Positions 19,342-46,651 of a stretch of 64,000 bases of DNA are shown one piece after another; position 1 is the first letter of the stretch, and each line of letters begins with the position of its first letter. Origin of the DNA: Amphiscolops sp. MND2022 (Eukaryota); the NCBI GenBank assembly GCA_964187785.1, contig OZ076409.1, forward strand, positions 27,344,001-27,408,000, given 5' to 3'. The notes under the pieces were generated by a model. The model searched no databases. It was not told the DNA's origin and worked only from the letters and a program-made list of their open reading frames with translations. A program made the translations under genes and the position numbers.

Positions 19342-19458
19342 ATGTCGGAGCTTAAGTGTACCATCATCAGCGCTAAGAACTTACCCAGCAAAGAGCGCTT
19401 CGGCAAAAGTGACCCCTACGTGTTGGTTGAATGCGCAAATCAAGAAAAGAAAACCAAG
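19342..19458 (+). CDS. Coding exon 1: start of C2 domain
   Basis: MSELKCTIISAKNLPSKERFGKSDPYVLVECANQEKKTK (A.NL...SDPYV C2 signature); ATG in AAAATG context; donor AAG/GTGAGA. Confidence 0.92.
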
Positions 19459-22400
19459 GTGAGATGTCTTTTTATCGTTTATTATCTTACAAATCTTTCC
19501 AAGATCTTTACAGGCCCTTGCAGTATCTGGCAACAACTTGGTGGATCTCTTCGCAGTTTCGAAATTTTAGCTCAAATCTAAGCTTGATATAAATTACACA
19601 GGTTTACAGGTCATGGTTTTCCATGCATGATTCATGGGTAGGTTATGCCGAGAATCATTCCATGGATGAATGATCATGGATGAAAAGCCACGATGCCATG
19701 GATGATCATGGATAAAAAACCATGATGCCGTGGACGAAAACCCATGAATTTAATCATTAAAATGCTTCAACTTCAGTTCATTTTGGTATTAGTGATAGTC
19801 ACCACTGGCACAGAATATTGGTGGACTGAAATTAGTTGTTCCTCGTCTAAAAGTGAGATATGCTGATTCATTTCAAACTCTGTTTCATATAACAACAACG
19901 TTGTGAATCTATTTTATTTCAAAACACTTTTTGGATGTTTTCTAAATTTTTGTAGGTTTTAAATGGGGAGACAGAAATTTCGTCGCCAGAAACTTCGTCG
20001 TCAGAAATTTCGTCGTATTGATTAAAGTTAACAGCGTTCACGAAAAGATATCATTTGAATTATTCAATTATTTAATGATTAAAACGAGGTTTCAAGAACA
20101 AGTTTCATTTTGACACTAAAATTGAGTCAAAACGTTAATTGCGTTCAATCAACTCATGAAGACGCTTATTGAGAAATGGTATATTTTCAGTCCTGAACAA
20201 TTTTACCGGTGTGCATTCATTTCACCCAAGTGAAAAAGTGGAACGCGAAAAAACTTTTAATTTATGGCGGAGAAGATTTGCATTTAAATCGGGGCTTTAC
20301 TGTACAATTTAAGCTTGTTCCAGGGGGTTACAAGACAAAAGCGCACCAGACAAAAGCGGCCCAGTCAAAAACGCCCAAAAGACACAGTCAAAAGCACCCA
20401 AAAGCAGTCATAAGCGCCCGAATCAGAGACCAATCAAAGGATTTGCTGACTCTTTTCCACCACCAATAATACGTCCTCTCTCCAAATAAATAATTATAAG
20501 TATTTCATCTCACAAAGTGATTCATTAACAAATTGATATAGTTTGTGCGAAATTGCCAAAATTAGCAGTTTAAATTATTTTCAATTGAGATTTGTTAGGT
20601 GTGAAAATGTCCAATCCGGCAATTACCAGAGGGTTAATCTTGTCTTTGAACACCTTCTATTAAGTTTAATTAGAGGCGGTGAAATCAACTATGAAATTAG
20701 TAAGACGTATTGCATTGCGGTGCTTATGACTGTGTAAATTGGGCGCATTTGACTGGGGCGCTTTTGTCTGTACACGGTCCCAGGGGTGTGAAATTTTGCT
20801 TTTTTGTCAAAAAAATATCAAGAAATCCGGGTAATTTTTGCTTCAAGTGTCGAATCAACAATCAACGTCGTGTTTGGAGGGAGGATAAGGAAACAAGGTG
20901 TATGTGAGGTGGGAGGGATAAGGATCATAGTCCGAAACTTTCTCTTTCAAAACCATAACTAAAAGTAGTCAATGATAACAATAATTGCAGAATTAACGAT
21001 AATTATTTGGATAATCAACAAGACTCGATAATTAATAATAAACGATTCCTAATAGATTATATGAAATGCAGCGTTTTATAGAACGTAATTACCGACGGCG
21101 AACTTTCTGACGATTGGTTTTTGCTGAAATGCATAATCTATCACAAACTTGTCAAAAGCTTCCATTGTTAACAAAACATTCAGCTATCGGTAATGGTTCT
21201 TCATGGATGAATCATGGGTTTTCATCTTAGCCTTGATCATGGTTGATTAGCCATGAAAACGAGAACCTTGATAGAAAACGTATACGTTCACTTTTGTATG
21301 ATGTTTCTGTTTGATAACTGAAAAGACTGACATTTCGATTTTTGTACGCTGACAACCGGGTGATTTTTTGAACTTTATGAGAAGCACACTCAAAGTAATC
21401 TGGGCCATTTGGCGAGGTTTGCTTAGAACTTATGCAGACATTTTAACATCAAGGCAGTGAGAGGACAACTTTGGATCTCTAAGTATCTTCTATACTCTTC
21501 CCATTACGCTAGCGTGCAAGAAAAAATCAACAAGAAGTATTATTTTGATTCTGCGAAAGTTTGAAAAGTCATGACGTCCCTGAAAAAAATGAGAAGTTTC
21601 TTTTCACAAGTGAACAATTAAACACAGACATAAAAAACCTTGAAATACTCAAGCACAATAGACTTTTCGAACTTTTTGTGCAAAATTTGTTCTTCTTTTG
21701 GCTGCTTGGTGGGTAATACAATTCGAACATTTCGAAAACAACAGAAGCACAAACTTAGCACACTTTCAAGAGAGAATTCTGAGGTTTATTATGAAAAAAC
21801 CTTGTATATTTCAAAAAAAAACTGAATTCTAACAACGGTCTTTCTCGAAAACTTTGTCTTTTCTATAATGTGCTTGCACGTTTCGTGGGAATTGTCATTC
21901 ACAGTGCTAAAAAACAAAAACTAAGTATACCGTTTTGGATAAACAATTAGTTTTTTTTTTCAATTGAAAATTTGCATGAAATGCATCAAAAGGTTCCATT
22001 TTTCATCAAAAGGTTTTCATTTTCCGACTATTTAAAACAACTTTTGTCTAACTTTCGGATCCTTTGGCGAAGATGAAAATAGAAACCTACCAAGCGTTGA
22101 AAATGAAATTAAAATTGTAAGATGTTGGAATCAGTTTCGATTTCCCTCAAACCATTTTGTTGAGTTTAGTTCTCTGGTATGGCCTTGAGAAAGAGCAACA
22201 AGCAACAAGAGATCACAGATTCAAGCCAACCAACGTTTATTACTGGGATTTTGTTTATACTTTTGTATCTTGCTGAGAAGAGTAACTGGAAAAACACCGT
22301 TTTAGATGAGCATGTATACTTTTTGGCTTTTAATGTGAAGAATTGGGGAGTTGAACTTTCAATTGTGTTTTTACAAAAAGATTCTTTGTTGCAATTGCAT

Positions 22401-25400: not shown

Positions 25401-28400
25401 TCCGCGTGAGGAAAAATTTGAAAAAAATTTCGAATTCTTTGAAAATTTTTTCTTCGATTTTTTTGGTCTCCGGTAAGTGGCATAGTGCCGAAAAAGATAA
25501 AAGGGGGCCCTTTGGGAGGTTTTGAACATCCATTTTTTTGCAAAATAGAAAAAATGAAGGGGGACCCTTTGGAGACATTGAAAAAATTTGCGAAAAAGTC
25601 TCACAAAGCCAAAAAACCTGCACAAAAAAATTTTTGGTCACGAGCGTGACTCGATTACACGTCCTTCTGCTTGGCAGACCTCAAAAAAGCCTAATTAACA
25701 TCTATGCCAAGTGCCAGTAGTCTCTATGTATGCAGTTAGTGGAAGCCAGCTTATAAAGCCTAAAAAATCGTTCATTTCGTTGGTCTTAAAAAAAAGTCAG
25801 TACTATAGTCTACGTGTTTCTACGAACAGCGCCGACTAAAAAACGTCTGAAAAAGAATTTTCCTCAATCAATACGAAACCTCATCAGTGCCACAGCATCA
25901 TAAAGTAGCGAAGAAGTCAGGAATCAGGAACCATGTTTCCTTTACAGAAAACCTCAAAATACCAAGAATCATGAAATATTTTTCTATAACTTTTATTGAA
26001 CGTTTTTTTACTTCGGTAAGTTTTATAGTGCCAAAAAACAAAAATGGCAATTTATGCTCACAAAACGCTGTTGTTTCTGATAAAAATCAAGGGAGAGATT
26101 TTGTGTTTGGAAAAAAATGTGAAAAGTTGCACAGTGCCGAAAAATTTTCAAGGGGGCCCTTTCGCCCCTACTTTTGCATACGTGAACATTGTTGGTTCAG
26201 TGCGCTCGAACGGACGTAACCCTGCTTTACGAAATTCGCGTTAACCACTGGGCCAAGTTGCAGTGAGAAGGTAATTGATAAAATGGAGAACTTTTGGTAT
26301 AAGTGATTTAAACAGATCAACTGTTTCGAAAAACTGAGGAAGAGCAATGACTGTAGTCGCTCTTTTTTAAAGAAAAGTGCCTACTAAAAAATGGCAAAGA
26401 TTCAAACATATTCAAAGTGCTTTGAGAGGTTCCTTCTGTGAAACGTCTACAGTCAATCTACAGAGAGCTATATTAGGCCAACGAGGTCCCCTCTGCATAT
26501 TGTTTTTAGTCGGAGTTTTTCGTAGCAAAACGCAGACTATAGTAGTATTTTTTTTCTTTTTTTCTAAGATCAACGAAGTGACAGAATTTATAAGCTTTAT
26601 AAGCTGGCTTCCACTAACTGCCACACTCATGTAGCTTCTTCTGCTTCCGGAGATTTTTTGAGATTTTTTGTGGGCTGCTAAGCAGGAGGACGGGTTCGAG
26701 TCCCGCCCATGACCAAAAGTTTTTTGCGCAGGTTTTTTGGCTTTGTGCATCGATTTACAAGCATTTTTGAGTGAGTTTTTTGTCAAATGTATGTCCTAAG
26801 AAAAGTATAGTTTTTAAAATTTTGGCTGTCTTTAGCTTTTTGATTATATAGTGTATAAACGTTTCGAAGTTCTACTTTTACAGAATTGTTTTAATGTGAA
26901 CAAATGTAAATTTTGCACCACGTTTTCTTTTTTGTTTGATTTGTTTTTATCAAACACTTTACAACGGTGGTTTAGGGGTTACGTGACCCTCCAAGTCATG
27001 CCAATTGATGTTATTTCCCTAAATTTTCAAGTTATCTTTAATATAAATTGTTTTTAGTGTGCTGTTTTGGGTAGAAAACTTGTTCGATAAATTCCCATTT
27101 GTGTAAAAAAATTAATCATAAGGTTAGTTTCAATTGGGAACTCTTGCAAACGTAGAACATGACTTTTTACTTTTGTTTTTCGTGTGATATTCTAGACTCA
27201 GTAAAATTGGCATAGAAAAGTTTCGAAGTTTTTCATTCAAATTTGAACAAAACAGAAATGAGGGACAAATGGGGCCCTTATTATTCATGCAGCAAGCACT
27301 CACGCTAGAGTTTTTGATTGGTTGCGCAATTTGTTAAAAGATTGGTTTCCGAACTTCTTTTTGGCACGGTCGCCTGTTGTTTGTATTGCTGGCAATATCA
27401 TCATTAATTCAAATTCATAAGGTTCATTAATGTCGAAGATGTCTAGGGTTATTGTTTTGAATTGTTTCAAGGTCATCGACAACAACTTGGACCCCGTGTG
27501 GAATGAACTGCTCAAGTTCAAGTGTGACGAGAATGCGGCCGAGATGGTGTTCACTGTGTGGGACAAGAACTCCTTCACCAGCGACGAGCTCATGTGTTTT
27601 GGTGTGGCCCCTCTGGCGGGACTCATTCAGAACGTGGACAAGGAGTACACGATTCCCCTCAGAGGTCAGACAGACAAGATTCTTTCTCACTTTTGCAATT
27701 AATCAACTATAAAAGTTATGAATTAATTATAATAGTTCCAATTACAAGTGAAAGCTTCTTGTCAAACGTGAGAAAATCTTGTCCTAGTTTGAAATGAAAA
27801 AAATTTCATTGAGTTGAAAGAAAATTTGAAAACTGGAAAAGCGATTTCATCTTGTTTTTCATTTGTTTTTCAATGACTGTTTTGTTTCCCAATTGAACGT
27901 TTATTGGACGATAATTGGAATAATCTCCGAGATATGCCGACTGATATAATTTGACCATAAAATCGACAAATGATGCCAATTTTGATAGTTGTCGGAAGAC
28001 AAAAATGTTGAACGTTTTTAGTTGGGTATTGTTTTTGGCTCATTTATATTGCCCATTTATATTCCTGTAAAAAAATTTTTTACATTCTCAAATCAAATTT
28101 TTACATTTTTTGAATGTTTGCTTTCGTAGTTTTCGTTTTCTAGCACAATGTTCTGCATCTATTTGTAGGTGTAAATACTAGTTAGATTTTTCTGGAATGT
28201 TTTTTTTCGACCTTTTTCGACCAAACAAAAATCAATTTCAGGCTAAATAGAAGTCGATTTCAGGCTAAGAATGGCGCAAGGCGTGCCGCAAATGCTCATG
28301 TCTGAGACTTGTGAATCTAATTCAACTGTATACAGTTGAATTAGATTCACAAGTCTCAGACATGAGCATTTGCGGCACGCCTTGCGCCATATATACAGCT

Positions 28401-31400
28401 CTTATTGGTGAAATTATGAAAATAACATTTGACAGTTGGTTGGAACTTCTGTGCCATTCAGAAAATTGCCAAATTTATTGAAAAATATTTGAAAAAAAAA
28501 CCAGCTTTCATGAGTTTTGCTTTGAGTTTTTTTCTTACATTTAGTGCTTTGAATGTGTTTCCTTTGAGCAAATAGAAAAGACCCTGGAATTATTGGGGAA
28601 AAATCTTCCTGGTTATGAAAATTTTGTACGGTGACCATTTTTTGTTTTAACGGCAAGGCGAATTTTTGGTTCTGTTTGTTCACGAGGTTTTGATTTTGCA
28701 GGAAGAGGTGAGTGAAATCGATAAGCACACTAACCAATGTTGTTTAATGAACTGATCTAGTCTTCTTTCAGAAAATTGGTAACCACCCAGTGTTCAATGT
28801 TGCTTATTTTGTTCAATTGTTCTTAGATAAACACCCGGGTTGACTCTCTTACTAGCATCTTGGCTGTCTTAGCAAGATCTTACCAAATTCCTACTCCATC
28901 TTGGCGACCGTGGAACCCATGGCCAGATTCTTAATAAGATCTTACTAAAATAATACATCATTCCAAAGTCGTATCAGCCGAGACTCAATCTATAGGCTCA
29001 TTTCACCCAACAGCGGCTATTTCTACTCGTTTTTATAACCAAAATGAAATGAATTTACATGCAAAAATGTGCGAAAAATTGCGATAACGTATTCTGGCTT
29101 CCGAAATTTTGACGAGAATCCTAATAACTCCTCACCAGTTTAAGACTAAAAAATGCGAATGTACCAAATGAACGCTCATTTCAAGGAATTTTGAAAACTT
29201 GTAACTTATCACTCCTGTCAGTTCCAGACACGGAGAAAAATGGTCTCAAACATCCAAAGCCACTATCGGAAAGTTACACAGGGAACACTAAGAAATCCGG
29301 AAATTTTTTGTTATCATATCTGTTTGGATAATGTCATATCGAGTTTGGGTAATGATTCAGCCGTTGTTGGCGACGGTTTTGCATGATAGAACAATTCAAT
29401 AATCAGTGAATGCCATCAGGACTCTTCAATCAAATTGTATAACCCGCTAACAGAAAATTTTGCGGCAAATTTTTTCTGGGGAACATAGCTCTCTTAGATC
29501 TTACCATGACAGCTTGCCAAGATATTACTAAGATATCCATGGAGGACTGCACCAAGGACACTGTTTGCCTACGGTGCGGAGGCGAGCACAACATTAAGGA
29601 GTGTGACGAGACAAGAGAAGCGTGCTGCCCCAACTCTCAACAAAACCACCCTGCATCTTACCGAGGCTGCCCTACTCAGAAGTTGTCAACAACAGGAACC
29701 TCCGCCCAAAGAAGAACTACGTAAGACAATCGAATAAAACACCACCAAAACAGAGACGGATTTACACCTCATCAAAGAAAGATTCGAAAGCGATCACAAA
29801 CAAGCCTTGGAAGAAATGGTAAAACACTTGAAGAAAATGGAAGAAGGAGTATTCGTCTTTATTGCTTCTCTGACCTTGCTGATCAAAAACCTTGTAGGAG
29901 AACAGAAGAAACCCGAAGCAGTCAGAACTCTAAGACAAGTTGCAGAGCTAGCCAAGAAAGCTTTCGGCAAAGAATTCTCTCCAAACCTTCAGGAATATAA
30001 TAGGAAGGGAAGAACAACCTGAAGATACTGCAACTCATTTGCCTAGGATTGAGACAAAAAGTGCAAATTGTGGAAAAATACCTTGAAGTGAACGACATTG
30101 ACATAGCGATCTTCAATGAAACGAAAGAGAACTCGAAAAAGCAAGTCAAGTTCTCGAGATGGCAAATTGCAGTTAGAACAACCCATCGATGGCACAGAAG
30201 AATGATCTGTGTGAGAAACGGAATGTCTTACAAAGAGGAAACCAGCGCATCCACCAACGAATACGAGTACATCAGGCTCAGAACAGGCGACTTGACAATA
30301 AATGCTGCTTATGTCCAACCTGAAAAGTCTATGTCAGCAACAGAACTCCTCATCACTAACACCAAGGAACACCTCATAACCCCCAACTGCAACAAAATAA
30401 ACCCAACAACCGATGCCTATCGAACAAACTTGAGCAAGACCAATTCCATCTGGAATGCACGGCTATGACGGAGATCTCAAGGAGAGCCTAGCAATCAGAG
30501 CGGACGAGAAAAGACCTTGAAAGACAAGAAGTCAAAATCAGCGGCAGATGTCGACGGAATAACCTACAAGCATCTGAAAAACGCACCCATGGAACTGAAA
30601 GAGCTCATCTGCCAATTGATCAACGGATGCATATGGCTCAGTACCACACCCGACAGATGGAAACAAACAATCGTCAAAATTATCCCTGAAGGGAACAAGG
30701 ATCCAACCAAAGTAACTAACTACAGGCCCATCAGCCTAATCAGCTGTCTTGAAAATCCTCGAATCCAAAGTAAAGGAAACCATTATGAACCACTGCATCG
30801 GAAACGAAGTTTTTGGCGAGAACCAGTACGCCTACCTACCAGGAAAAGGAAATCAGGACAGTCTAACGAGGCTCAGCAACGAAATAGCAACGACCATCAC
30901 AAGAAAGGGAGCTACAGCAGTGGCCTTCATGGATGTCGAAAAAGCCTTCGACAGCGTCTGGCACAAAGGACTCTTACACCAGATGAAAGACTTGGGACTC
31001 CCATACCACATGATTCTATGGACTATGGACTATCTTGAGAAACGCAAAGTGCAAATCAATCACAGCGGAGCACTATCAGAAGTTTTGCCATCAAGAGCAG
31101 GCGTCCTTCAAGGAAGCACAGTGTCACCAGTGTTCTTCATCATCTACGTCTCCAAGCCATCTGTCACGAGATGTAAGTTGCTGCAATTTGCCGATGACAT
31201 TGCGCTCGTGAATTAATGGAAAACCACGGAAGGCGCTAAGAACGGCCTCATTCGGGGCATGGACGAGCTGAACGAGTGGTGCAGCAAGTGGAGAATAAAA
31301 CTCAACCAAGGCAAAACACAAGTAATGTTCTTCAACTGGAAATTCGAAGCCACCACCCCTCTAGTCTATTTCAAAAACAGTATCCTGCAACAACCAAACG

Positions 31401-34400: not shown

Positions 34401-37400
34401 AACATTGAGATTTTTCTACATGACGTGCCGAGTATACCTACCTTTTGTCACTCCAAATATTTCATGAAGCTAATTAAAGTATCAGAACAGTTCGTCAGGA
34501 CGTCAAAAACTTCAAGAGGGTTCTAGCTTGGAATAAAGGGAGAAAACGAGGAAAAAACTTTTCAAATATCAATGTTTTTCATTTCAACAACAAATGAAAT
34601 TAAATATCAAAAAATGTTGGAAAAAGGCATTTTAGTAGTTGAAATGAAAAACATTGATATTTGAATAGTTTTTTAGTTTTCTAGATTTAACTTATTGAGA
34701 GCGAACATTATTGATTCCAGGCACATGTGGCTGGAATCAATAATGTTCCCTCTCAGTAATTTAAATCTAGAAACCATTCGTTCTCTTATGGTTAATACCG
34801 CTGAAACATCTTGTTTATTTGTAAAGTTCAGAAAAGAATTTGGCTTATTCTAACGGATTAAAAAATCTCGAATATCGACGATACTAGACTGTCTATTTCC
34901 ATTAGCGCCGACAAAGATGTCTAATTGATCAGCCATGAATTTGTTTGTATATTACTGGAACTAAATGTTGGTCCAGGTTAAATTTTTCAGCATAAAATTG
35001 TAAACGCAAAATTTTTATTGCAAAAAATATCCATGCTTTCGAAAAATTTGATATCAGAATTAGTTTCATTAGGGGCTCAGAACGATCGTTTAGGCTGTGG
35101 CATGAAGCAGCCAATTCATGGCCAATACATAAACAAGTTCAAGTACCTGCTAAAATGATGCCACGTACTATTTAGCATACATTACGTTGATGATTTAAAA
35201 TACAGTTGAATTCTACAGTACATGATACTTTGTCTGAGTTGATAATCTTACTTCAGTTTTAATTCAATCTTATTATCCACCTTTCTCCAAATTTATTTCA
35301 TGACGCAGTTAGCAATCTGGAAAGAACAACATGGAAAATCATTCCAATCCAAACTCAACGGAAGATGGTCCGAATACATCGGAACAGTCAACCAGGACTA
35401 ACAACAATCAAATAATATCCGAATGGACGGAACGAAGTAAATACAAAATACCGATTTTATCGGACAGAGAAACGGACCTCACAAAGATCAACCCAAAAAT
35501 GTGGTGGGAACAGATATCGGAGTATACACCTGACATACAACCGAAACCTTGGCGAAATCATAGATCAAGAAACCGAATATATGGACCCACACAACGTATA
35601 TTACATAAGGGGTGACGTCATCTGGGCGCTCGGCCCAAAAGCCAGACACGAAATGATGAGAGGCCAATGGGGCCGAGAATTGAAACACGTGATCCTACCG
35701 GACCTACTGACGTTATTCAGGAAAATTTTTCTTCCTGTAAGAAACGTATTTCACAGCAGGGCACAATTTTTATTAACATGAAGCAGGACGACAACCAAAA
35801 CACTAGAGGAAATTTGGAAAAGATTGGTGGACATCGAGAGGAAGTGCGATTTCAATAGTATCACAGCCGAAGAAATTATTACATACAAATTCGCAGCCAC
35901 CATCAAAGTCAAAAAAGCCCGCGACAAGTTCATTCAAGGCCCACTGAAAATACAATTGGTATTCGAAACCATCGAACTTGATAACTACAACCGTAAATAC
36001 GGGATAAAAAACCGAAAAACAAAAAAACCCAGAAAAATATCAAACAGCTCATCAGAAGATGAACAGATCGGATACACCAACCAAGCACGAAAACGAAAGT
36101 AAACAATGCCCGCCAAACATTCTCATACTCGAATTGCCGGTTTTGCGGAAAACCGAATTGGACACTGGAATACACATGCCCGGCACGAAAACCGCAGTGC
36201 AATAATTGTAAGAAGATGGGACACTTTGCCAAGGTGTGCAAACCCAAGACCGTCAACCGGCTGAGTGAAGCACCGACATCGTGCAGTAACACCGAATCAT
36301 AGCCGGAAATTGATCAAACTCAGTCCGTCAACAGCATCAGTCGAGTAGATTTCTACAAAACAATCCTTTTGGTCCAAGAACAACCAATAGAAATTATCGT
36401 TGATACCGGCTCCCCAGTGACAAATATACCGCCGATAATTAATCCAACCGAAAGAAATAAGATAACAAAATTCTTCGTAGACGTGCACAAAAACCCAATA
36501 AAAGTCAAAGGCGAGGCAATGGTGGAAGCGAAAACGGAAAAAAGCAAAGAAAAATTACCAATTCTCATCACAGAAAACAAATTACTCAACCACTATTGGG
36601 CCTAGATTGGTTAGACAAATTGGAAAATGGTCTACAGGGTGGCAAGAAAACAAGTATCATACGACATGTGGATAAAGACGAAAGACTAGAAAGAATCGTC
36701 TATGAGTATGAAGACCTATTCAAACACAACCATACTATTAAAGATCTGATATTCGACAATCAGCTGAAAAAAGACTCCAGACCAATACAATAAAAAGGAT
36801 GTCAATGATCGATTTGGATTACGCTTATGGGCAAGCAAAATTATCCGAAGAAGCGGCCAAACATTGCGTATTCACGATTATCGGAGGAGATTTGACGGGA
36901 CATTATCGCTTCAAGAAAAGTTTTTACGAGCTGTCGGATATCCGCACGGTATTCCAAGAACATATAGACTACGTACTGGAATTTAAAGCACCAGTGTGGA
37001 TAGACGATATTATTTGCCTGACAAACGGCAGCATTAAAGACCACAACCGGGAAGTGCGAGCAGTTCTCACCAAATTGCAAGACGCCGGTGACCGAGCCAG
37101 TGAAAGGAAGACTGAATTATTCAAAAGGGAACTGACGTGGCTGGGCTATTATATTAACCGAGAATGCGTGAAACCAATCAAAGACAAAACGGACGCAATC
37201 ACCAAACTGGAAGCCCCGAGGAACGGTAAAGAATTAAAATCCTTCTTGGGTCTTATTCAACATCTCTCGAAGTTTATAAACAACCTATCAATGAAAACAA
37301 ACAAAATGAGGGAACTCCTGAAGAAAGACGTCAGCTGGGAATGGACGTCGGAGATAGTTGAAGACTTCGAAAGACTGAAAAAAGAGATCACGGATGCCCC

Positions 37401-40400
37401 GTGTTTGGCCTATTTCGACTCGAAGAGAGATAGTTACATCACGATTGTACACGGGATCATCATGTAACACGGGATTGGGAGCAAAACTGTGGCAAAAGGA
37501 AGGTGAAGTATTCAGACCTATAGCTTTTGCAAGTAGATTTCTAACAGATTGCGAGAAAAAAATGCAATAATTAAACTAGATCTAATAGGGGCATTATGGG
37601 GGCTAGAATGCTTCAAGTATTATGTTTAAGTGAAAAGGGTTAATTTGTTAACAGACCACCAAACGCTTCAACGATTATTGAAAAAGAATAGAGCACACAA
37701 CCAATACAGCGCTAGATTAACACGTTGGTTGGATAGATTGAGCCATTTTGATGTTAACGTGCAATACATGGCCGGTAAAAACATTCGCTTAACGGACTAC
37801 TTGAGCCGACATCCGATCGTACCCACCAAGATTACTGAACTAGAGAATTAAGCGGACGGACAAAACGAAACGAAAGCTGGAGAATAGTTCGTAGTTAATC
37901 GAATATACGGCCTCTTTGACTTTAATCAAACGCGAGGAAGCATAAAATGAGTTATCGAACAAATAGCTGTGAGTGAAAATTCCGACCAATCACAGAGCGA
38001 CAAACACGTACGTGAACAAAATCAAAAATCATTTGCTCAAAACGTCATCGTTACTGAACGGTATCAATTGAATCGCTTCAAGTAAAAGTCACCGCCAAAC
38101 AACTTGTACTCGATTAGCAAAAGGGACAAAGTCAATGGTATCGACATGGATACGTGGATTTCTTTAATAAAAAGCGGGGCCATTCCCCAGAATTGGAACG
38201 CCTGTGGATACAGAGAAATCATATCCTGAAGCCAGATAAGACGAGAATTGTCGGGAAGGGCAAGGACAGCGAAAGAATACAGGAGTACCAACCGCCGCAA
38301 GCGGATCGTCGAACTGAATATCGAGACATATAACCGCTTCTTCCACTACTGTGAGCATCTGGGATCAACTCCTCTGCAAAAGTTTCAACAGAACAACAAC
38401 GAGTCCTGGATCAATAACAATCAATCAGACGTGGAGAGTCGAGTAAGCAGGACCAAACAGGACAAATGACCCACGAGTGCGCTGAAGGAGCTCCGCAAGC
38501 ACGTAACTTTGAACTTAATAAGACTGAAGCAGACAGCAAAAATCAACACCCTTGATCCGAACCAAAACGAAGGAACAACAGAAACCATAAAAAGAGCCGA
38601 TGGAGATTTCTCACTGCATCTGCCATTACTCGTAGACGAGACAACCCGGGGTGGAAAAAGCCTGAACGCCATTTCAGCCATTGAAAAAGATCAACTGGAA
38701 AGCATCTTTTATCCCTGCCGCCCCACCGACTACACAATTCGGGCTATTGTTTTACAAAGATGAAATTGTTATCCCCGAAACAATGAGAGCAACCATCATC
38801 GCCATGTTGCATCAAGGCCACACGTCGACAGCAAAAATTGACCAACTTGCCGAAGCTTTCTGGTGGCCAGGAATACACTGGGACATTCAGGAGAAGGTAG
38901 AGACATGCCCTAGCTGTAGAGCGGCAGGTTAAAACATTGAAACACATATTCCATCAACGAAGAAAAGTAGACTGGAAATTTTAACCGAACCGAACCAAGA
39001 AAGTCAATTGTACTTCGCCGGTCCAATCAAATCGAAAACACGCGGCTATGTATATATTTTAGCAGCCATTGGCCGTTTTAGTGAATGGCTCACCGCACAA
39101 ATTTGCAAAAACGCGGCGACACGGACTGTTTTGAAATTTTAAACGAAATATTTCACAGAAAAGGGAACGACACGGTGTATTCGAACTGACAACGGCAGCT
39201 GTTTTAAAAGTAACGAATTATAACCAATTTTATTTCAGCCCAGCCAGCTGAACTGCAGGTGTTTACAATCAACGATTCGGACGGCGAGATGGCCGACTAT
39301 ATGGTACTCAACGATACCAGGAAAAGAGGCCGTTAGGTAAGCCGGAATTTTAAAAAACTTCAATTTTACGAAAAGGAGAACAATCCCAACTCAATGAAAT
39401 GTGGATTTAAAACTAAGAAAGTTTAGACTGCGATAAAGGAAAGTGACCATACCATCACCACCTCCGAAGAAAAATCATACGTAAAATCATACGAGTCGAA
39501 AAGATCCATCAACAGGTGCCGCAGATGCGGAAAGTTCAGCAGTGGTGAGTACTGCGAGACTCACAGACGCCTCATAGCCGAAGGAGGCATGACCAACGAC
39601 CAGGCTAAAAACGACGCCGGGCCAAGCTACACGATGCCAACCATGCCATCCAAGAAGCCTGTCTACAGTCGAGTAGACCGAGTAGTCATGTACGATTCCT
39701 CTAGCCGCGATTCAGACTCCATCGCGTCAAATGCAGATAAAGACGACTCCGCCACGTATAACGGCTCCGAGGTGACCGATCTCAGGACCGAAATTGAACG
39801 GACAATCGAGACACTCCGGACACAGACACCGACGATGACATCATTAATCGGATGTAGCACCGCTATAGCCCCCACTACAACACACCACGATCCGTCGGGC
39901 ACCCCAATAAGATGCCAAGAAACAAACACCGGCACAGCGGAGGACTAGACTAGAGAAGGACTGACAGGTAAAATAAGGTCAAAACGCGTAAACAAAGAAA
40001 TAAGGAACAAAGCTAGATTTGAATCAGAACCACGTAGATCAGAAAGAATAAGAACATCAAAAAGGGTGGAAAAACCCGGTGGGGGTCGAATATTTTTCGA
40101 AAATTAGTTGTTTAGGAAACACGCCTAGCCCTATTCCAAGACGCTATCCAGTTCCGCCATTCCCTCGTCTGAAGAAGGACATGCCCAACCACGAATGGTT
40201 CCCCTAAACCCGCGGAGAGGGAAATGTTGCATGAAGCACCCAATTCATGGCTAATACATAAACAAGTTCAAGTACCTGCTAAAATGATGCCACGTACTAT
40301 TTAGCATACATTACGTTGATGATTTAAAATACAGTTGAATGCTACAGTACATGATACTTTGTCTGAGTTGATAATCTTACTTCAGTTTTAATTCAATCTT

Positions 40401-43400
40401 ATTATCCACCTTTCTCCATGCATGAAATAGTGGAGACCACTGTTAACAAAAATAAAATTGTCATCGACTGCGATCAATAGTAGAATTGGCTGCAGCATGA
40501 AACTGAATGGGATACATTACTATAACTTATTCCATGCTTCCTATCTGCTCGGATGAATTTCGTTGAAACTTCATTGTGTTACAGGTATTCACACACTCTA
40601 ACGTTTGTCAGTCCAAAGATTTCCATGTAGCGAGGCTAAAATATTTTAATTTGAGGCATGTTTGAAGTGTTAATAAACAAGGCATCATGGAAACTTGTCA
40701 CTAATTCTACGAGTTAGGAAGTTTTATTGTGTTATTCTGGGACCACTGAAAATGAGAAAACTAAAGTTTTTGTCTGATGTCATTCTAATGTTTGATTATT
40801 TTGTTACCAGTTAGCGGTTTGTAAATCTTCGTTCAATTGGTTTTTCTAACTCAATTTTTCTAACTTCGTTTTTCTAACAGCTTTGTTTCCTATCTATCTT
40901 GGAAAACTGATTTTGTAGAAATTAGCGAATTCGGATATATATCTAACTACAATGTTCACTAAAAGCTGTTTAAAGATGACTTGGAAAATGACCCCAAACG
41001 TTTCAACTGCGTTTCAATACCAGACATCGCAGTCCTGAAAACGCAGAAATTTCAGCTTTACTTTCAAAATTTTTACGTTCGAGCAAATTTCATTTTCGGC
41101 ACAAAATATATTCAACGTCTGAGCTTTTGGGACAAAGTAGGTTATTGCAGTGGCTAGTTTTGAAAAATCTTTTTTCTGATCAGAGTCACATCTAACATTC
41201 AAAGTCGTTTTAGGACACCACGGTGACGAAAGTTTCCCCTTTGGATTTTTCCGACATTGTGCGAATTTTTCTGAATGGGTCCCCTCCTTAACTACGGATG
41301 GAAAAATCCCACTTTAGGTTGTTTAACCCCGTTTTGAAGATTCTCAAAAACGCGTCCCTGACCAATTTGAAGGAGTTAACGTTTTTGGATTCCTGAGCAA
41401 ACTTGGGTTATTCTGGTGCTGAGAAACTTTCCTTACAAACCAGGGGATTATCAACAGATTGTTCATAGATAGTTAGTAAATAACAGATATTCAAAAATTC
41501 CGGCACTGAAATGGCTTGGACTGAAATGCCTGTCTGTCTTCATGAGACTGCATTGTCTGGGTTAAAATAACGGTTTTTATGGTAGAATAGTTTTGATAAC
41601 GATTTGAGTAACTATATTCACGATGACTACAGTTATTTCAATGAAGGTGTACTTTTTATGGAAATACAATTTGAATTTCATTCATTTTCTTGTGGTTGAC
41701 ATACCGACTTACTAACATGATGTGCTGAAATATACCGACCAGTTTGGGTATCTATTTGTTCTCTTTTTCCTCAATATGGAAGGAAACACTTTTTAACAAA
41801 CGCGCTCAGATCAATGATGAATACCCGGGTGCCACGCAACATGCAATTACATGCATTTCCATGGAATTTCTGGTTCCATACGATAAATTCATGTTTTCAT
41901 AAATAGAATCACATGGAACCATATGAATTGATGTGGAGTTGCATGGATTAATGACATAATTTACACATTTTTCTCTAATCATCGTTGAAATATAAACGGA
42001 TATTTCAATCCGGAGATCACAGAAACGAAAGAGCTGGCATCAGACAAGGCACCGATGTTTACATGAATTAAACCTTGCTTGCTCAGAAAATAATTTAATA
42101 ACGCGAAGATGTAAAACACATTGCTACAGTCAGAAACCTAAATTCAGTCAAATTAATACCTTGTCGGACGGTAAAAATTTGTAAAACGTCATTCATTTTT
42201 TTCAGAATTAGCTTGCTTTTTCAATCTTGATTCCAATTGGTTAATTACAAAAATTAGACATTCAAAATTAACGAAATAAACTTAATGAAATAAATTTAAT
42301 AGCATACGCTTATATCATGGCACTGGAGAGGAAGAAGCGGCCGAAAGTTTCAATCTTAATTATAAGCGGTATGCGAGCAGTGGTCCGCGGATGGGTTACT
42401 AAAATCGAATGTCGATTTGGGATATTTTAATGTTTATTTAGAAAATTTACTTTTTCATTTAATTGATTCAGGAATTTTGAATGTGGTTTTGCAAATTTCA
42501 GCGTCCTACATCGCATTGACTTAACGGAGACCACCCAATGGAGCTGCGATAAACTTTGAACCCGAAAAATTCAAACTCTAGAATAGATTTCACGCACAAG
42601 GGACCATGTGTTTTAACCCCCATCCCCCCAACAAGAAAACACATTTTGTTCTTGAATAAAAAATTTTCAATTAAGAAATATGAATGTAATTACTTCGAGG
42701 ATTGAGTTAGGTCCATATGTTATCATACGAAACACTGTATGGTTCCATGCATGGAAACGCATGGAATTGTTTCAGTCGAATGATTTATGGGTGGAATTAC
42801 ATGGAAGCTTCATGAATTTGGATTCGGATAATTAGGCGTCTGATATATTGCTTCCTTGCAGAAAAACAATGTGTTCGAAAAAAGGCAACGGATGATTCAA
42901 GTTTTCACCGATGGTTATAAATACCACTATCAACAGAATACTCCGCCATAATTGCGTGATTGGAACTCACTGTTCGTTTTCTGATACCTGATCTGAGTCT
43001 GTTCAAACTGTTTTTCAGGCAGTAGCAACAAATGTGAATTGCACATCAAACTGAACCCCAACTACGAGACAGCGCTAATTAAGAACCAGAGAGTCGTTCA
43101 AGAACTCACTCAAACTAAGGCTGAAATCGAAGCTCTCTCCGGAGAAAGGAAAAAACTGCAAGCGGCCGTGGGTGATTTGGAGAAAAACAACGCGACGTTC
43201 AAAGCCCACATTGACACGCTCTCGGGAGAAAACAATAAATTCCAAGAAAACAACCGGAAATTGGAAGAACAGGTGAACGTGATGAAGGGAGAAAACGACA
43301 GATTCAAGGCTAACAATGAGAAGCTGGAAAAAGAGAATGCTAAGTTTGAAGAAAACAACAAAAAACTGGAACAGCAAGTAAGTTCAAACTCTTAAAGCAT

Positions 43401-46400
43401 AGAAAATATCTGTTTACAAGCAATGGCACAATTCTCGTCACATCGTACCTGATCATGACACACCTTCCATGATCATGTCACATCTTGCATGATCATGGTC
43501 CATACATACATGGATAGAATAGATAACCAAATTAGTGCGATCCACAATGTGAAATAGTCTTCCATCTATGCGAGGGTGAGAGTCTATGTGAAGGCAAAAA
43601 TCAATGCTTTTGGTAGATGGTCTGAAAATTGAAATTTTAAAACTAACTGAAAATTTGGCAATAAATCATGAGGAATTTCAAGTTTCAGCCAGTTCTCTTG
43701 AAGTTTCAAAAAACATCGAGCTTTTTCCTTGTTTGGTACATCCAGACCTGCCAGTTAAATTCTGAAACATATCTGAGGGTTATACTTGATAAAAAACGAA
43801 CTTGTTGCGGATGGATTTTGTTATGGAATGTTTGGTGCAGTTCTTCTGATAGCAAAGGTCAAAGTATCCCGAGATAATGACCACAGAAGTGCTCGTTGCA
43901 TTTGAAATTGACGTCTTCGACTTTCTCTCTGTTACATAATGGCAGAATAACGCTAGAGTAATAGTGGATAAGGCATCTTTGAACCTAGAGTGCACATTTA
44001 GTTTTGTTCAGGTGTTCAAGATGGGAGAAGAGAATGCCAAGTTTGAAGCCAACAACCAGAAGTTGGAGCAGGAAGTTGGCAAGCTGAGTGGAGAGGTGAA
44101 CAAACTGGGCGAGGAGAACAACAAGTTTGCAGAGAACAATGCCAAGCTGGAAGCATCAGTGACAGCTCTCACAGGAGAAGTTGACAAATTCTCTCAGGAA
44201 AATGAGAAACTGGCCCAGACTAATAAGGTTTGTCATACTCAATACTACCCTGGAACATATTTGATTATTCAAAGAGTGTTCAATCCGCTGCTCGTATTGT
44301 TCTACTTCGATTAACATTAAGAGCGAATAATTGAGAAAAAACAGTTTGACCACACAGCTCTCGGATAACTTGCCGATGCATTTTTTTCAACGTTTTGATA
44401 GTTTTTTGTAATTGAGGTTTCTGGTATGCATTATATATACTGCTGATCCATTTTTTCTCAGTTTCGTTCTCTTGAAATACGGATTGAGAGTGGTTTGATG
44501 AATGAAGACGAAACTCCGGTATAAAAATCGAAGCAATTATTAAGAACTACTTATTTTTTGTTCAAATTTCGATCACGCAATGCTGTCACCTTTGTCGAGA
44601 ACCGAATTTATGATCATTCTATTTGTGAGAAAGTTCAACATTTTGAGGTGAGGACATGAAATTGTTAGTTGTATGTGCTAAGTTTTTCTTCCAGTGACAA
44701 GATTCCAAATTATTCGAAACTCAAGCTATTTGTGAGCTTCAAAACATTCCGAGGTTGACGACCATGGCTGATTCTCGACTTTTCATTCATGATCATGGTT
44801 TTTTTCATGGAATTTCTTTCGAATCATTGTGTATCATTGATGATTTTCATTACAATCGAATCATGTCTAATCATCCATTGTAATTTTTATTACTATCGCC
44901 TCCATGATCACGGCTCTAATGAAAATCCATGATTCATCCATGAATTATGGATATTTTCCCACAATCATGGAATGATTCTCGACATGGCGAATCCATGAAC
45001 CATGGATGGAAAGCCGTGGCCTGTAAACCTGGGTTGACCTCAAACGATTGCCTTCTGGAGATTCAATGAACGCATCATGACATTTAAGCAATTCAGTATT
45101 TGCATTCATCAAAGTTTTAGCGGCTTCAAAGTTATTTTTTTTTGTTTTTTAGTTGGCGCTTCTCGTACAAAACACAGACTATAGCTTTGGCTTTTTTAAA
45201 GACCTAGGAGGTGACAGATTTTGTAAGCTTTATAAGCTTCCACTAATTGCCACATTAAACTTCTATTGCCACTTGGCATCGAGGTTAATCAGGATTTTTT
45301 GAGGCCTGGGAAGCAGAAGGACGTGGGGTCGAGTCTCGCCCTTGACCAAAATTTTTTGATCATGTTATTTCGGCTTTGTGAGACTTTTTTCCGCATTTTT
45401 TAAATTATCTCCAAAGGGTCCCCCTTCAATTTTTTGATATTTTGCAACAAAATGGGTGTTCAAAAAAATTCCCCCTTTACATTTTCGGCGCTATGCCACT
45501 TACCAGAGACTTCTGCTGGTAAGTGTACTTTTGCATATGTGAAAAACTTTACTTTTTTGAACCTTCAAGTTGAGCTGGGCGCCGACTTGGCCCGTTGCCG
45601 GCTTGTTTTGCTTATCCGTGTAAAAGATAACTGTAGAAATGATATCGAAAAGACCAGTCAATTTCAGGCGTTGGAGAACAACGTGAACAAACTTGAAGGT
45701 GAGGTGAACAAGATGACTGAGGAAAACAACAAATTCGCAGATAACAATAAGAAGCTCGAATCGCAAGTTAACCAGATGACGGCTGAAAACGAAAAACTGG
45801 CCGAAAGCAACAAAAAATTGGAAGAAAATGTGAACAAACTTGAAGGTGAAGTGAGCAAAATGACTGAACAGAATAACAAATTTGAGGAAAACAACAAAGC
45901 GCTGGAAAACCAGGTTGGTGAAATGAAAGCAGAAAATGAGAAAATGGCCGAAAATAACAAAGCCCTGGAAGAAAAGATTAACCAATTTTCTTCGGAGGTT
46001 GACAGACTTTCTGGGGAAAACGATAAAATGGCAGAAAATAACAAACAATTGATGGCACAAATCGGAAAACTCAGTGAAGAAACAGAGAAAATGTCGAAAC
46101 TGAACGACGATCTTAGCAAAAACAATGCTGAGTTGGAAGATAAGATTAAACAGCTTAAAGAAGAAGTTGAGAAATTCGCCGCAGAAAACGAAAAATTCGC
46201 AGCGCAAAACAAAGCTTTGGGAGAAAATGTGGACGCTTTGGATAAGAACAACAAAGCTTTAGAAGCCAAAATCAAGGAGCTAGACCAACAAATTGCCAAG
46301 TTTAAAGAAATTTACGACAAACTCACAGGCGAGAACGAAAAACTGGCCAAGATCCGAGACGACTTTCAGAAACTAAAGGACCTCTTTTTTGACCAATTGG

Positions 46401-46651
46401 ACGAAAAGATGAAGGCAATGGACAGGTCTCTGTTGGAAAAACTAGCAGCTGATATTGAGATGATGGACAAGGAAGAGGGAATGTCACCCGACGAGTTTGA
46501 CAGGTTCTTAGCCCGGGTGCCGAAACACTTGAAGGAGAAGTTCAACAAGATTGCGACAGATTTCGAGAAGTACGACACAAATAAAGACAACGTCATCGAC
46601 TACAAAGAGCTGTCGAAAATGCTGGACTTGGTAATGGATGATGATAAATAA
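19342..46651 (+). CDS. C2 domain - long coiled coil - EF-hand protein, 5 coding exons, 622 aa: join(19342..19458,27472..27664,43019..43377,44012..44227,45668..46651)
   Basis: All four introns are GT-AG with compatible phases (0,1,0,0). Exon lengths 117+193+359+216+984 = 1869 nt form one open frame ending in TAA. The C2 motifs and the heptad register run unbroken across the junctions. Confidence 0.9.
19597..21360 (+). mobile_element. CATG-rich non-autonomous DNA element with nested MITEs (intron 1)
   Basis: The left end cacaggtttacaggtcatgg... is the reverse complement of 44940-45033; a CATG-rich right portion lies at 21190-21260. Right boundary approximate. Confidence 0.55.
20326..20776. mobile_element. 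MITE with repeat-rich TIRs and ~9-bp TSD (MULE-like)
   Basis: gacaaaagcgc.cc repeats at the left end, gggcgcttttgtc at the right; flanks gttccaggg (20317-20325) and gtcccaggg (20777-20785). Confidence 0.65.
23078..23322 (+). mobile_element. Truncated copy of a high-copy HINE/Helentron-like repeat
   Basis: Begins aacaagccgagaacggccaaagtcggcgccatatcta, as do the copies at 25310, 45607(-), 50970(-) and 58362(-); contains gggggacccttt internal units. Confidence 0.6.
24100..24880 (+). mobile_element. Heavily decayed LINE reverse transcriptase remnant
   Basis: FNRCIAEGVFP; GVPQGSELGPFLFICI at ~24521-24568; YKYLGLHIDEK. Confidence 0.7.
25310..25843 (+). mobile_element. Near-complete HINE/Helentron-like repeat, nested in a related copy (~25005-26390)
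   Basis: 5' aacaagccggg...ggcggcgcca; 3' actatagt palindrome then gcgccgactaaaaa (subterminal inverted repeat plus hairpin). The family assignment is inference. Confidence 0.6.
26503..26790 (-). mobile_element. 3' part of the same repeat family, inverted
   Basis: tttttagtcgg...gactatagt...ataagctggcttccactaactg is the reverse complement of 25730-25843. Confidence 0.65.
27472..27664 (+). CDS. Coding exon 2: C2 domain core
   Basis: Acceptor tttcaag/; VIDNNLDPVWNELLKF...FTVWDKNSFTSDELMCFGVAPLAGL; donor AG/GTCAGA, phase 1. Confidence 0.92.
28271..28390. repeat. Perfect 120-bp palindrome (60-bp arms, no spacer)
   Basis: 28271-28330 is the exact reverse complement of 28331-28390; centre TGTA|TACA. 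Confidence 0.97.
28834..33074. mobile_element. CCC...GGG-terminated MITE (CMC/EnSpm-like) interrupted by a LINE
   Basis: cccgggttgac ... gtcgacccggg termini, AAGATCTT-type subterminal repeats; colinear with 48153-49233. Confidence 0.8.
29546..32696 (+). mobile_element. 5'-truncated Jockey/I-group LINE (ORF1 zinc knuckles, AP endonuclease, RT), decayed
   Basis: CLRCGGEHNIKEC...NHPASYRGCP; DIAIFNETK (APE); NYRPISLISCL, FMDVEKAFDSVWHKGLL, GVLQGSTVSP, LQFADDIAL (RT); decayed (GAA)n tail 32681-32696. Confidence 0.9.
34552..34773. repeat. Two adjacent imperfect inverted repeats (34552-34674 and 34678-34773)
   Basis: ttcaaatatcaatgtttttcatttcaac / gttgaaatgaaaaacattgatatttgaa; and tttctagatttaa...ccaggcacatgtggctgg...ttaaatctagaaa. 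Confidence 0.85.
35096..35289 (+). repeat. Gypsy 5' LTR
   Basis: TG...CA; 4 mismatches against 40225-40418 by manual comparison. Confidence 0.9.
40225..40418 (+). repeat. Gypsy 3' LTR
   Basis: TG...CA, directly preceded by a polypurine tract. Confidence 0.9.
41824..42840. mobile_element. CATG-rich element starting CCCGGG, right end degenerate
   Basis: cccgggtgccacgcaacatgcaattacatgcatttccatgg...; second CATG cluster at 42715-42820. Confidence 0.45.
43019..43377 (+). CDS. Coding exon 3: last C2 strand and start of coiled coil
   Basis: Acceptor tttttcag/GC completes the split Gly codon; SSNKCELHIKLNPNY...KLEQQ; donor CAA/GTAAGT. Confidence 0.92.
44012..44227 (+). CDS. Coding exon 4: coiled coil
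   Basis: Acceptor ttttgttcag/; VFKMGEENAKFEANNQKLE...LAQTNK; donor AAG/GTTTGT. Confidence 0.9.
44749..45033 (-). mobile_element. Short CATG-rich MITE with CC(G/C)...GGG ends and TT TSD (intron 4)
   Basis: tt|ccgaggttgacg ... taaacctggg|tt; inverted homology to 19597-19750. Confidence 0.7.
45145..45607 (-). mobile_element. HINE/Helentron-like repeat ending ~60 nt before the exon 5 acceptor
   Basis: ttagttggcgct...gactatag ... gggcgccgacttggcccgttgccggcttgtt, the reverse complement of the 25310-25843 structure. Confidence 0.7.
45668..46651 (+). CDS. Coding exon 5: coiled coil and EF-hand pair, stop codon
   Basis: Acceptor atttcag/; ALENNVNKLEGEV...; atypical EF-like MDKEEGMSPDEF and canonical loop DTNKDNVIDYKE; TAA at 46649-46651. 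AATAAA hexamers at ~46716 and ~47766. Confidence 0.92.
   Translation, partial: ALENNVNKLEGEVNKMTEENNKFADNNKKLESQVNQMTAENEKLAESNKKLEENVNKLEGEVSKMTEQNNKFEENNKALENQVGEMKAENEKMAENNKALEEKINQFSSEVDRLSGENDKMAENNKQLMAQIGKLSEETEKMSKLNDDLSKNNAELEDKIKQLKEEVEKFAAENEKFAAQNKALGENVDALDKNNKALEAKIKELDQQIAKFKEIYDKLTGENEKLAKIRDDFQKLKDLFFDQLDEKMKAMDRSLLEKLAADIEMMDKEEGMSPDEFDRFLARVPKHLKEKFNKIATDFEKYDTNKDNVIDYKELSKMLDLVMDDDK

Follow-up and report, generated by a model that had tools for sequence, protein, structure and literature searches.

The question raised by this locus is whether five coding segments, spread over 27 kb with transposon-rich introns between them, encode a single protein with a calcium module at each end of a long coiled coil, and what such a protein might do. 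The answer that we favour, with about as much belief as doubt, is a membrane tether or spacer that Ca2+ would recruit and whose head would bind a partner. We considered as the window the whole stretch of 64,000 nt of Amphiscolops sp. MND2022 DNA, in which all the exons lie on the forward strand. Precisely, coding exon 1 (19342..19458, aa 1-39) holds the first part of a C2 domain, with loop 1 and its residues E18 and D24, and exon 2 (27472..27664, aa 40-104) holds C2 loops 2 and 3 (N43; D70, N72, D77, E78). Exon 3 (43019..43377, aa 104-223) encodes the last C2 strand and then the start of the rod (first d position aa 143, at 43135), exon 4 (44012..44227, aa 224-295) continues the rod with its heptad register unbroken, and exon 5 (45668..46651, aa 296-622 plus stop) encodes the remaining rod (last d position aa 535, at 46385) and an EF-hand pair. 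Joined, the exons give 1869 nt, or 622 aa and a stop codon, with no internal stop and with GT-AG borders at all introns; the five-exon gene of the original prediction, with C2, 57 unbroken heptads and EF-hand pair, was thus recovered in full.

Upstream of the ATG, a likely splice acceptor region was read from the sequence at 19280..19341 on the forward strand (AG at 19290-19291, with the frame open from the AG), and an upstream exon, if there is one, may contribute a 5′ UTR or lengthen the N-terminus. Relatives P0001 and P0002 carry N-terminal extensions of ~63 aa and ~145 aa, respectively; no matching upstream coding exon was found in the window.

Intron 2 (27665..43018) separates the C2 exons from the rod exons by 15.4 kb and contains broken retroelement pieces, including a reverse transcriptase (RT) piece (30740-31213), an RT/RNase H piece (36742-37464) and an integrase zinc finger (38666-38929). 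Such an element-filled interval might divide two separate genes, a reading that we find hardly credible. In fact, exon 3 still encodes the final strand of the C2, and the model of P0001 has a strand at this place, followed by a helix. Moreover, C2 exon 2, the rod and the tail each match this locus only in searches of the genome itself (the copy count being a lower bound), and four intact relatives hold C2, rod and tail in one chain, aligned across the junction. P0001, P0002 and P0003 are collinear with the model (identity 29-32% in the C2, 45-52% in the rod and 56-65% in the tail), and one of the three lies on an uninterrupted 2.4-kb contig (L027); KAH8098759.1, of the alga Aureococcus, has the C2 (E 1.7e-14), rod and tail as well. 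Because of these intact chains, we consider it very likely that the C2 and rod exons belong to one gene, as was predicted. No additional rod exon was found in intron 2 or elsewhere in the window, and no paralogue was seen in the own-genome searches, which give lower bounds, so the gene appears single-copy in this animal genome.

The protein had been treated as isolated. Sequence comparison instead places its rod and tip in a larger, unnamed family with members in algae, bacteria and an animal, which is new here. The window protein has the marks of this family, namely a match of the tail profile over both EF-hands, a D-x3-G-x4-E-F loop, and a rod with N/V at a and L/F/M at d. Among the 76 sequences with a full tail, a hydrophobic N-terminal segment (median span 58 aa) occurs in 36 and a C2 in 5, none was seen with both, and 35, many of them truncated, have no detectable anchor. 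In Bryopsis, Thiotrichaceae, Campylobacterota and further sequences a predicted membrane hairpin stands in the place of the C2. These transmembrane (TM) forms have a rod of 47-135 aa in the same style as the C2 forms (N at 97 and V at 78 of 404 a positions; L at 256, F at 61 and M at 41 of 412 d positions), and their tails are mostly 20-40% identical to that of the window protein. Those that we scanned reached no Pfam or NCBIfam cut-off for a described family. The C2 forms make one branch with SH-aLRT 99 in a quick tree of 95 columns with 30 of 69 inner branches open, so we claim no donor and no order of events.

As regards sampling, word-based searches produced 523, 454 and 5620 candidates, of which P0001-P0003 alone were true relatives, and missed others that HMMER found; hence the absence of named animal orthologues is weak evidence. 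A metagenome scan gave at least one locus among the 600 matches listed, 35 and 85 pattern matches in viral contigs were not confirmed in any case, and no neighbour was common to more than 3 of the 22 bacterial loci. An Atlas search with the tail returned leads under 0.9 only. Separately, look-alike "hypothetical protein" Atlas clusters, mostly from diatoms, scored 0.95 and are an unaligned lead. Sequence and fold searches of the PDB gave no solved relative of the whole protein, only generic C2, EF-hand and coil matches.

At the N-terminal end, the Pfam C2 match covers positions 2-40 of 104 in exon 1 and 41-89 in exon 2 (36 bits each, against a cut-off of 22), hence the two exons carry complementary halves of the domain. 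Foldseek assigned the P0001 model to the C2 fold with E ~1e-9. Counted strictly from Asp70, the classical ligand set is E18, D24, D70, N72 and E78. This corrects the earlier count of three ligand Asp out of five, with Glu and Asn at the other two positions: the fifth position is Glu78, with Asp77 adjoining it. Nor should the Asn be read as a loss. When exon 2 is aligned to the cPLA2 C2 (6iej), D70/N72 and N43 fall on D93/N95 and N65, and PMC6550875 describes N65, D93 and N95 of cPLA2-alpha as ligands for Ca1 and Ca4; since the Asn matches a calcium site of the cPLA2 type, it is no defect. In loop 1, compared with the cPLA2-alpha ligands D40 and D43, D24 is present and E18 was placed by motif spacing and not by alignment. 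F74 aligns, across a one-residue gap, with cPLA2 Tyr96, a residue of phosphatidylcholine choice, and is not conserved in the relatives. In the five C2 sequences compared, four positions of the cPLA2-type set are kept (D24, D70 and N72 in all five), the N65 equivalent is Ser or Gly in two, and the fifth position varies (E, N, V, D, absent). No TM segment had been predicted and none is seen, since hydropathy over 19 residues peaks at 1.2 ahead of the tail.

At the other end, the second EF loop (46574..46609, aa 598-609) is of the canonical 12-residue Ca2+ type and exceeds two Pfam cut-offs (EF-hand_5, 27.8 vs 25.9; EF-hand_6, 25.3 vs 25), in agreement with the original prediction. The first loop (46466..46495, aa 562-571) has no Pfam EF-hand match and is not a canonical 12-residue loop. 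It consists of 10 residues, D562 to E571, in the D-x3-G-x4-E-F pattern, and what had been called atypical turned out to be the most conserved feature of the family: the pattern occurs in 67 of 76 tails, with D562 kept in 76/76, G566 in 91% and E571 in 97%. In the tail model (mean pLDDT 94), the rod helix runs on to D562 as the entering helix. The canonical second loop is present in 29 of the 76 tails and in none of the 16 bacterial ones, therefore Ca2+ sensing by the head is not family-wide. Elsewhere, in FIP3 and ninein, the EF pair holds its partner with no Ca2+ bound (PMC7655957).

These counts bear on a Ca2+-independent spacer, in which the C2 would bind acidic lipid or protein constitutively and the EF pair would be a fixed docking surface. 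To this alternative we assign a small probability. It is consistent with the better conservation of the non-canonical loop and with a C2 ligand set that differs from the classical five Asp. However, all 9 C2-type tails keep the canonical second loop and all five C2 sequences keep D24, D70 and N72, which suggests selection for metal binding.

Between the two modules, 57 heptads follow one another (aa 143-535), and every one of them has L, F or M at d, also where exon 3 joins exon 4 and where exon 4 joins exon 5. The rise of a coiled coil is 0.148 nm per residue, which gives ~59 nm as the predicted length of the 399-aa rod. The ~60-nm rod with ~57 heptads of the original prediction agrees with this, but the length is not fixed, the relatives having 31 to 53 heptads. 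A fixed ruler is made less likely by the C2 forms measured, which vary between 31 and 57 heptads, and by the Aureococcus rod, whose register is broken. Asn fills 29 of the 57 core a positions, and Asn at a is described as favouring a parallel dimer (PMC11948332); this points to a parallel, weakly zipped dimer. The g-e' pairs (2 attractive, 3 repulsive) give little support for a stable parallel dimer. A dimer prediction for aa 440-622 with Ca, at 0.14 against a mark of 0.32, speaks neither for nor against a dimer.

An unbroken rod, with neither proline nor register break over 399 aa, might also be the subunit of a cortical or ciliary filament, built by lateral packing or by contacts between EF-pair heads, with the C2 doing no more than fastening the polymer to the membrane. 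In fold, the head is similar to the EF pairs of S100-type proteins and alpha-actinin (Z 7.6-8.1, rmsd 2.5-3.8, 69-80 residues aligned), and such pairs often self-associate. On the other hand, a Z near 8 is an ordinary value for an EF pair, the rod is acidic (net charge -18 per chain), and the rods of the TM forms are short for a filament subunit; we regard a filament as unlikely, although worth keeping in view. With clearly less conviction still, the Asn-rich core, which would zip weakly, could be read as that of a protein that zippers two membranes towards each other before fusion or during repair, like SNARE-mimic TM-plus-coil proteins. The rod does weakly match NCBIfam LegC2/C7 (NF043058), whose members are called SNARE-like in the title of a paper (PMC4961411), but at 28-44 bits against a curated cut-off of 350, over ~64-107 residues of the coil only and in 4 of the 6 proteins scanned. 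We rejected this family as an assignment. SMC and Rad50 coils match too, and the head would be up to 59 nm from the anchor, hence zippering is in our view a very faint prospect.

Returning to the Ca2+-recruited tether or spacer, its parts would work together as follows. The chain would be the product of one gene, as its sequence and the collinear intact relatives indicate. The N-terminus would be a membrane anchor, in view of the C2 fold and of the predicted TM hairpin that other family members have in its stead, an exchange that also lends the tether idea indirect support. The cPLA2-type ligand set, with four positions kept in five C2 sequences, suggests that this anchor would depend on Ca2+. 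Asn/Val at a and Leu/Phe/Met at d would hold two parallel chains in register, weakly zipped given that half of the a layers are Asn and that each chain has a net charge of -18. The head, predicted to be continuous with the rod helix, would be a binding module with one canonical Ca2+ site. When Ca2+ rises, the two C2 domains would dock on membranes, and the EF-hand head, ~59 nm away, would hold a partner or another rod, making a switchable tether or spacer. Candidate processes are vesicle docking, cortical spacing or wound sealing.

A bolder version, unlikely to be right as a whole, extends this to a family of membrane-anchored calcium rods of algae, animals and sulfur-oxidising bacteria, in which a Ca2+-dependent C2 took the place of the integral TM hairpin on one occasion. 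The barely zipped, half-Asn rod of 30-60 nm in the C2 branch would then be switched from both ends, Ca2+ at the head stiffening or cross-linking the rod while the C2 grips the bilayer, so that Ca2+ would trigger tethering in secretion or wound sealing; lateral transfer would account for the patchy spread.

All the parts are known domain types, and the function that we infer for the protein is read from them. The combination had been predicted to be undescribed, and keyword, accession and locus-tag searches found, among the papers listed, no description of a C2, coiled-coil and EF-hand architecture or of the TM/coil/EF relatives; a Pelagomonas preprint among them is unrelated. The locus defines an unnamed protein family in which the same rod and head are set on a predicted permanent or a predicted calcium-switched membrane anchor, a natural experiment. 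If the tether reading is true, it adds a Ca2+-regulated membrane-tethering module of which these searches named no member in standard model animals. A natural coil of 57 heptads with Asn in half of its a layers would directly test how much buried Asn a long dimer tolerates, and the bacterial members are small, simple versions for structure and assay.

Among known systems, Rab11-FIP1/2/5 (C2 class) and FIP3/4 (EF-hand class) are described as joining a coiled coil to a C2 or to EF-hands (PMC5997156). The window protein is alike in its N-terminal C2 and coiled coil, and unlike in having C2 and EF pair in one chain, with the EF pair C-terminal. A Rab11-FIP identity was rejected, in line with the original prediction: there is no C-terminal Rab-binding domain (RBD), the last 70 aa, searched at E up to 10, match 8 Pfam families, of which six are of EF-hand type and none is an RBD, and Pfam Rab11-FIP3-like reached 24.4 against a cut-off of 31.9.

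In the EF-hand dynein adaptors (CRACR2a, Rab45, ninein, KASH5), too, an EF pair adjoins a long parallel coiled coil whose opposite end is linked to a membrane, KASH5 being laid out as EF pair, coiled coil and membrane link. With its EF pair, its long coil predicted to be parallel and its presumed membrane-binding C2, the window protein might likewise be a motor adaptor, as are CRACR2a, FIP3 and ninein, the EF pair gripping a motor and the C2 a cargo membrane; against this, the same head is found in bacteria, which are not known to have dynein. Adaptors need ~35 nm of coil, a length that the 57 heptads exceed, but their motor-binding EF pair is N-terminal to the coil (PMC7655957) and here the chain order is reversed, so we judge an adaptor role very unlikely.

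Alpha-actinin and spectrin share the succession of binding module, rod and C-terminal EF pair, and the head aligns with that of Entamoeba alpha-actinin (Z 7.6, rmsd 2.5, 69 residues). They differ in having calponin-homology actin-binding domains where the window protein has a C2, and spectrin repeats and an antiparallel arrangement where it has a continuous heptad helix, modelled as long single helices and predicted to be parallel. The C2 resembles those of cPLA2-alpha and NEDD4 in its D-x-N loop 3, and that of cPLA2 in its loop-2 Asn; unlike cPLA2-alpha, NEDD4, MCTP and E-Syt, the protein has no catalytic, HECT, SMP or TM part, and its first ligand position is Glu. Long coiled-coil tethers such as the golgins are likewise long rods with an anchor on one end and a module for capture on the opposite one; the window protein differs from them in its calcium modules at both ends, and it has no sequence family match above generic coil level. 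The TM-hairpin/coil/EF-pair proteins (Bryopsis GMH37387.1, Thiotrichaceae, Campylobacterota) have a homologous tail and the same a/d pattern, and differ in their predicted integral anchor, their short rod and an often degenerate second EF loop.

The five plus-strand exons at 19342-46651, spliced conceptually from the window sequence, had GT-AG borders throughout and joined into 622 codons without a stop, as originally predicted. The C2 domain placed at the N-terminus was recovered by Pfam as complementary halves, exon 1 covering positions 2-40 and exon 2 positions 41-89, each with 36 bits against a cut-off of 22. When its own genome was searched, exon 2 of the C2, the rod and the tail (the C-terminal EF-hand pair, or head) each matched this locus only. 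That genome, of 1.07 Gb, gave seven matches to Wnt genes, which marks it as an animal's. The tail alone, used as query, retrieved P0001 (675 aa), P0002 (724 aa) and P0003 (427 aa), all with an N-terminal C2, which is the outcome that a single gene predicts. These proteins aligned over the full length of the window model, exon junctions included, with identities of 29-32% in the C2, 45-52% in the rod and 56-65% in the tail. The order C2 (E 1.7e-14), rod, tail was also found in Aureococcus anophagefferens KAH8098759.1 (444 aa), and one of P0001-P0003 occupies a single open frame on a 2371-base metagenome contig (L027). The five-exon model is a real gene, with C2 and rod very likely in one unit as had been claimed; a split into a gene of C2 exons and a gene of rod exons is extremely improbable.

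A good acceptor site and an open frame lie upstream of the ATG, at 19280-19341. P0001 and P0002 have a short motif in common at the starts of their low-confidence N-terminal extensions, but the upstream part of the window showed no such motif. G+C is 54% in exon 2 (27472-27664) versus ~36% in the DNA around it; at third codon positions it is 57% over the whole model. Intron 2 (27665-43018) contains broken plus-strand elements of the LINE-like and LTR-retrotransposon-like kinds (29443-31720 and 35313-39948), a 194-bp direct repeat of 98% identity (35096-35289 and 40225-40418) that may represent long terminal repeats, and two long palindromes, one perfect of 120 bp (28271-28390) and one of 96 bp with 92% identity (34678-34773), both probably element-derived.

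A model of P0001 matched, by fold search, solved C2 domains of MCTP2, E-Syt and Munc13 (C2B) with E ~1e-9. The classical C2 count takes five Asp ligand positions. In the window protein these are E18, D24, D70, N72 and E78, so that the Glu and Asn originally described are present but the tally of three Asp in five did not stand. D24, D70 and N72 were kept in all five C2 sequences; four of the five have Glu at the first position (in Aureococcus an Asp lies one residue farther outward), and the fifth position is variable. By HMMER alignment, N43, D70 and N72 of exon 2 fall on N65, D93 and N95 of the cPLA2-alpha C2, for which PMC6550875 gives D40, D43, D93 and N95 as Ca1 ligands and D40, D43 and N65 as Ca4 ligands. 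Asn, earlier regarded as a departure from the ligand set, is thus a known ligand type. The window C2 likely has at least one predicted Ca2+ site, and a spacer working independently of Ca2+ is an unlikely reading.

The unbroken rod of ~57 heptads and ~60 nm was borne out: Leu (33), Phe (15) or Met (9) occupies the d position in 57/57 consecutive heptads (aa 143-535), giving a predicted length of ~59 nm, computed from the heptads and the rise per residue of coiled coils. At the a position of these heptads, Asn occurs 29 times, Val 16 times and Ile 7 times; the rod has no proline and a net charge of -18, and g-e' type edge salt bridges contribute little (2 attractive, 3 repulsive). Asn at a favours parallel dimers and lowers their stability, according to PMC11948332. 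The rod would be a dimer whose chains run in register and zip loosely, the two C2 domains lying together at one end and the two heads at the opposite one; that the rod acts as a fusion zipper is the least probable of the functional alternatives. Relatives have 53, 52 and 31 heptads, which argues for a rod length tuned or free rather than fixed.

The terminal EF-hand pair was recovered in a high-confidence model of aa 440-622, built from 62 aligned rows (mean pLDDT 94), as a four-helix EF pair in which the rod continues directly as the first helix; the last 70 aa contain one canonical loop. The first loop, two residues shorter than canonical, is non-canonical as noted originally, but is not merely atypical: it is the most conserved feature and a family hallmark, its pattern being present in 67 of 76 full tails (D562 76/76, E571 97%, G566 91%, E559 91%). 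The canonical second loop was found in 29/76 tails, including 9/9 of the C2-type and 0/16 of the bacterial ones. Given a first loop kept widely and a second kept patchily, the head likely owes its ancestral function to the surface of the first EF-hand; the C2 branch likely retains, in addition, a conventional predicted Ca2+ site. The 100-aa match P0023 consists of three tandem copies of the first-loop segment.

A four-tail profile was run against 1.84 billion representative sequences, with 308 matches at E <= 0.001. The best 150 of these were pooled with 12 of 22 bacterial translations, four full-length relatives and the window protein, giving 167 rows: 76 matched the whole tail, 44 part of it, and 47 were generic multi-EF proteins, left out of family counts. 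Among the 76, 36 (Bryopsis GMH37387.1 among them) had in place of the C2 an N-terminal hydrophobic segment (median span 58 aa, enough for a putative two-helix membrane hairpin) followed by a 47-135 aa rod with the same core pattern as the window protein. Five had a C2, four by sequence pattern and Aureococcus by Pfam, and 35, many of them truncated, had neither. As a lead only, look-alikes of the Bryopsis protein in the Atlas are mostly diatom clusters (score 0.95). An N-x-P-like motif precedes the membrane segment in 26/36 TM rows, by a loose pattern, in both bacterial phyla and in eukaryotic members. Among 41 short matches examined, 28 had the core motif (60-82% identical to the tail core of the window protein), and in 21 of these similarity ended directly after the first-loop glycine, which looks like an intron shared by many other genomes and suggests that the C2-type subfamily is common in a group of intron-rich genomes. 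The window gene itself lacks an intron at this point. Many such exon-sized fragments occur among the short matches P0020-P0100.

In a GTDB scan, 112 pattern matches yielded 22 genomes that carry the TM form as a stand-alone TM-hairpin/coil/EF-like gene; those found belong only to Thiotrichaceae (8) and Campylobacterota (14). Ordinary bacterial genes surround it, and no neighbour was conserved, any one being common to at most 3/22 loci. A quick maximum-likelihood tree was built from 72 tails and 95 columns, after three short rows and one duplicate were dropped from 76. One branch (SH-aLRT 99) united the five C2 proteins with two relatives truncated at the N-terminus; 16 bacterial rows, from both phyla, formed another (SH-aLRT 96) within an unresolved fork of TM forms. 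Being unrooted and weak at depth, the tree shows clustering and not direction.

The strongest functional clue is this swap, at one and the same position, between a predicted integral anchor and a C2: the N-terminus likely keeps the rod membrane-bound, in TM forms permanently and in C2 forms when Ca2+ rises. The head, up to 59 nm from the membrane, would then bind a partner or another head. We infer a tether or spacer at about even confidence; a filament subunit is doubtful, though less so than the Ca2+-independent spacer.

No family reached cut-off in six proteins scanned with NCBIfam or six TM forms scanned with Pfam, and literature searches, mostly of open-access main text (supplementary tables may list members), gave no description of the anchor-rod-EF family. 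The protein was still undescribed within that scope, as proposed. Apparently undescribed too, the family combines known parts; its anchor swap is informative and its distribution is odd. Another C2-plus-EF combination is the unrelated 1445-aa P0015, which we take to be RPGRIP1L-like; besides a coiled coil and C2 domains it has many EF-hands at its C-terminus. Fold search with the head gave nothing beyond generic EF pairs of the S100 and alpha-actinin types (Z near 8), and alpha-actinin has only its outline in common with the window protein. Rab11-FIPs have a Rab-binding domain in the layout given in PMC5997156, whereas the domain check of the window protein's end showed none, as originally stated, and this identity was ruled out. 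EF-hand dynein adaptors, as described in PMC7655957, have their modules in the reverse order to the window protein, for which a motor adaptor role is improbable, if slightly less so than the zipper.
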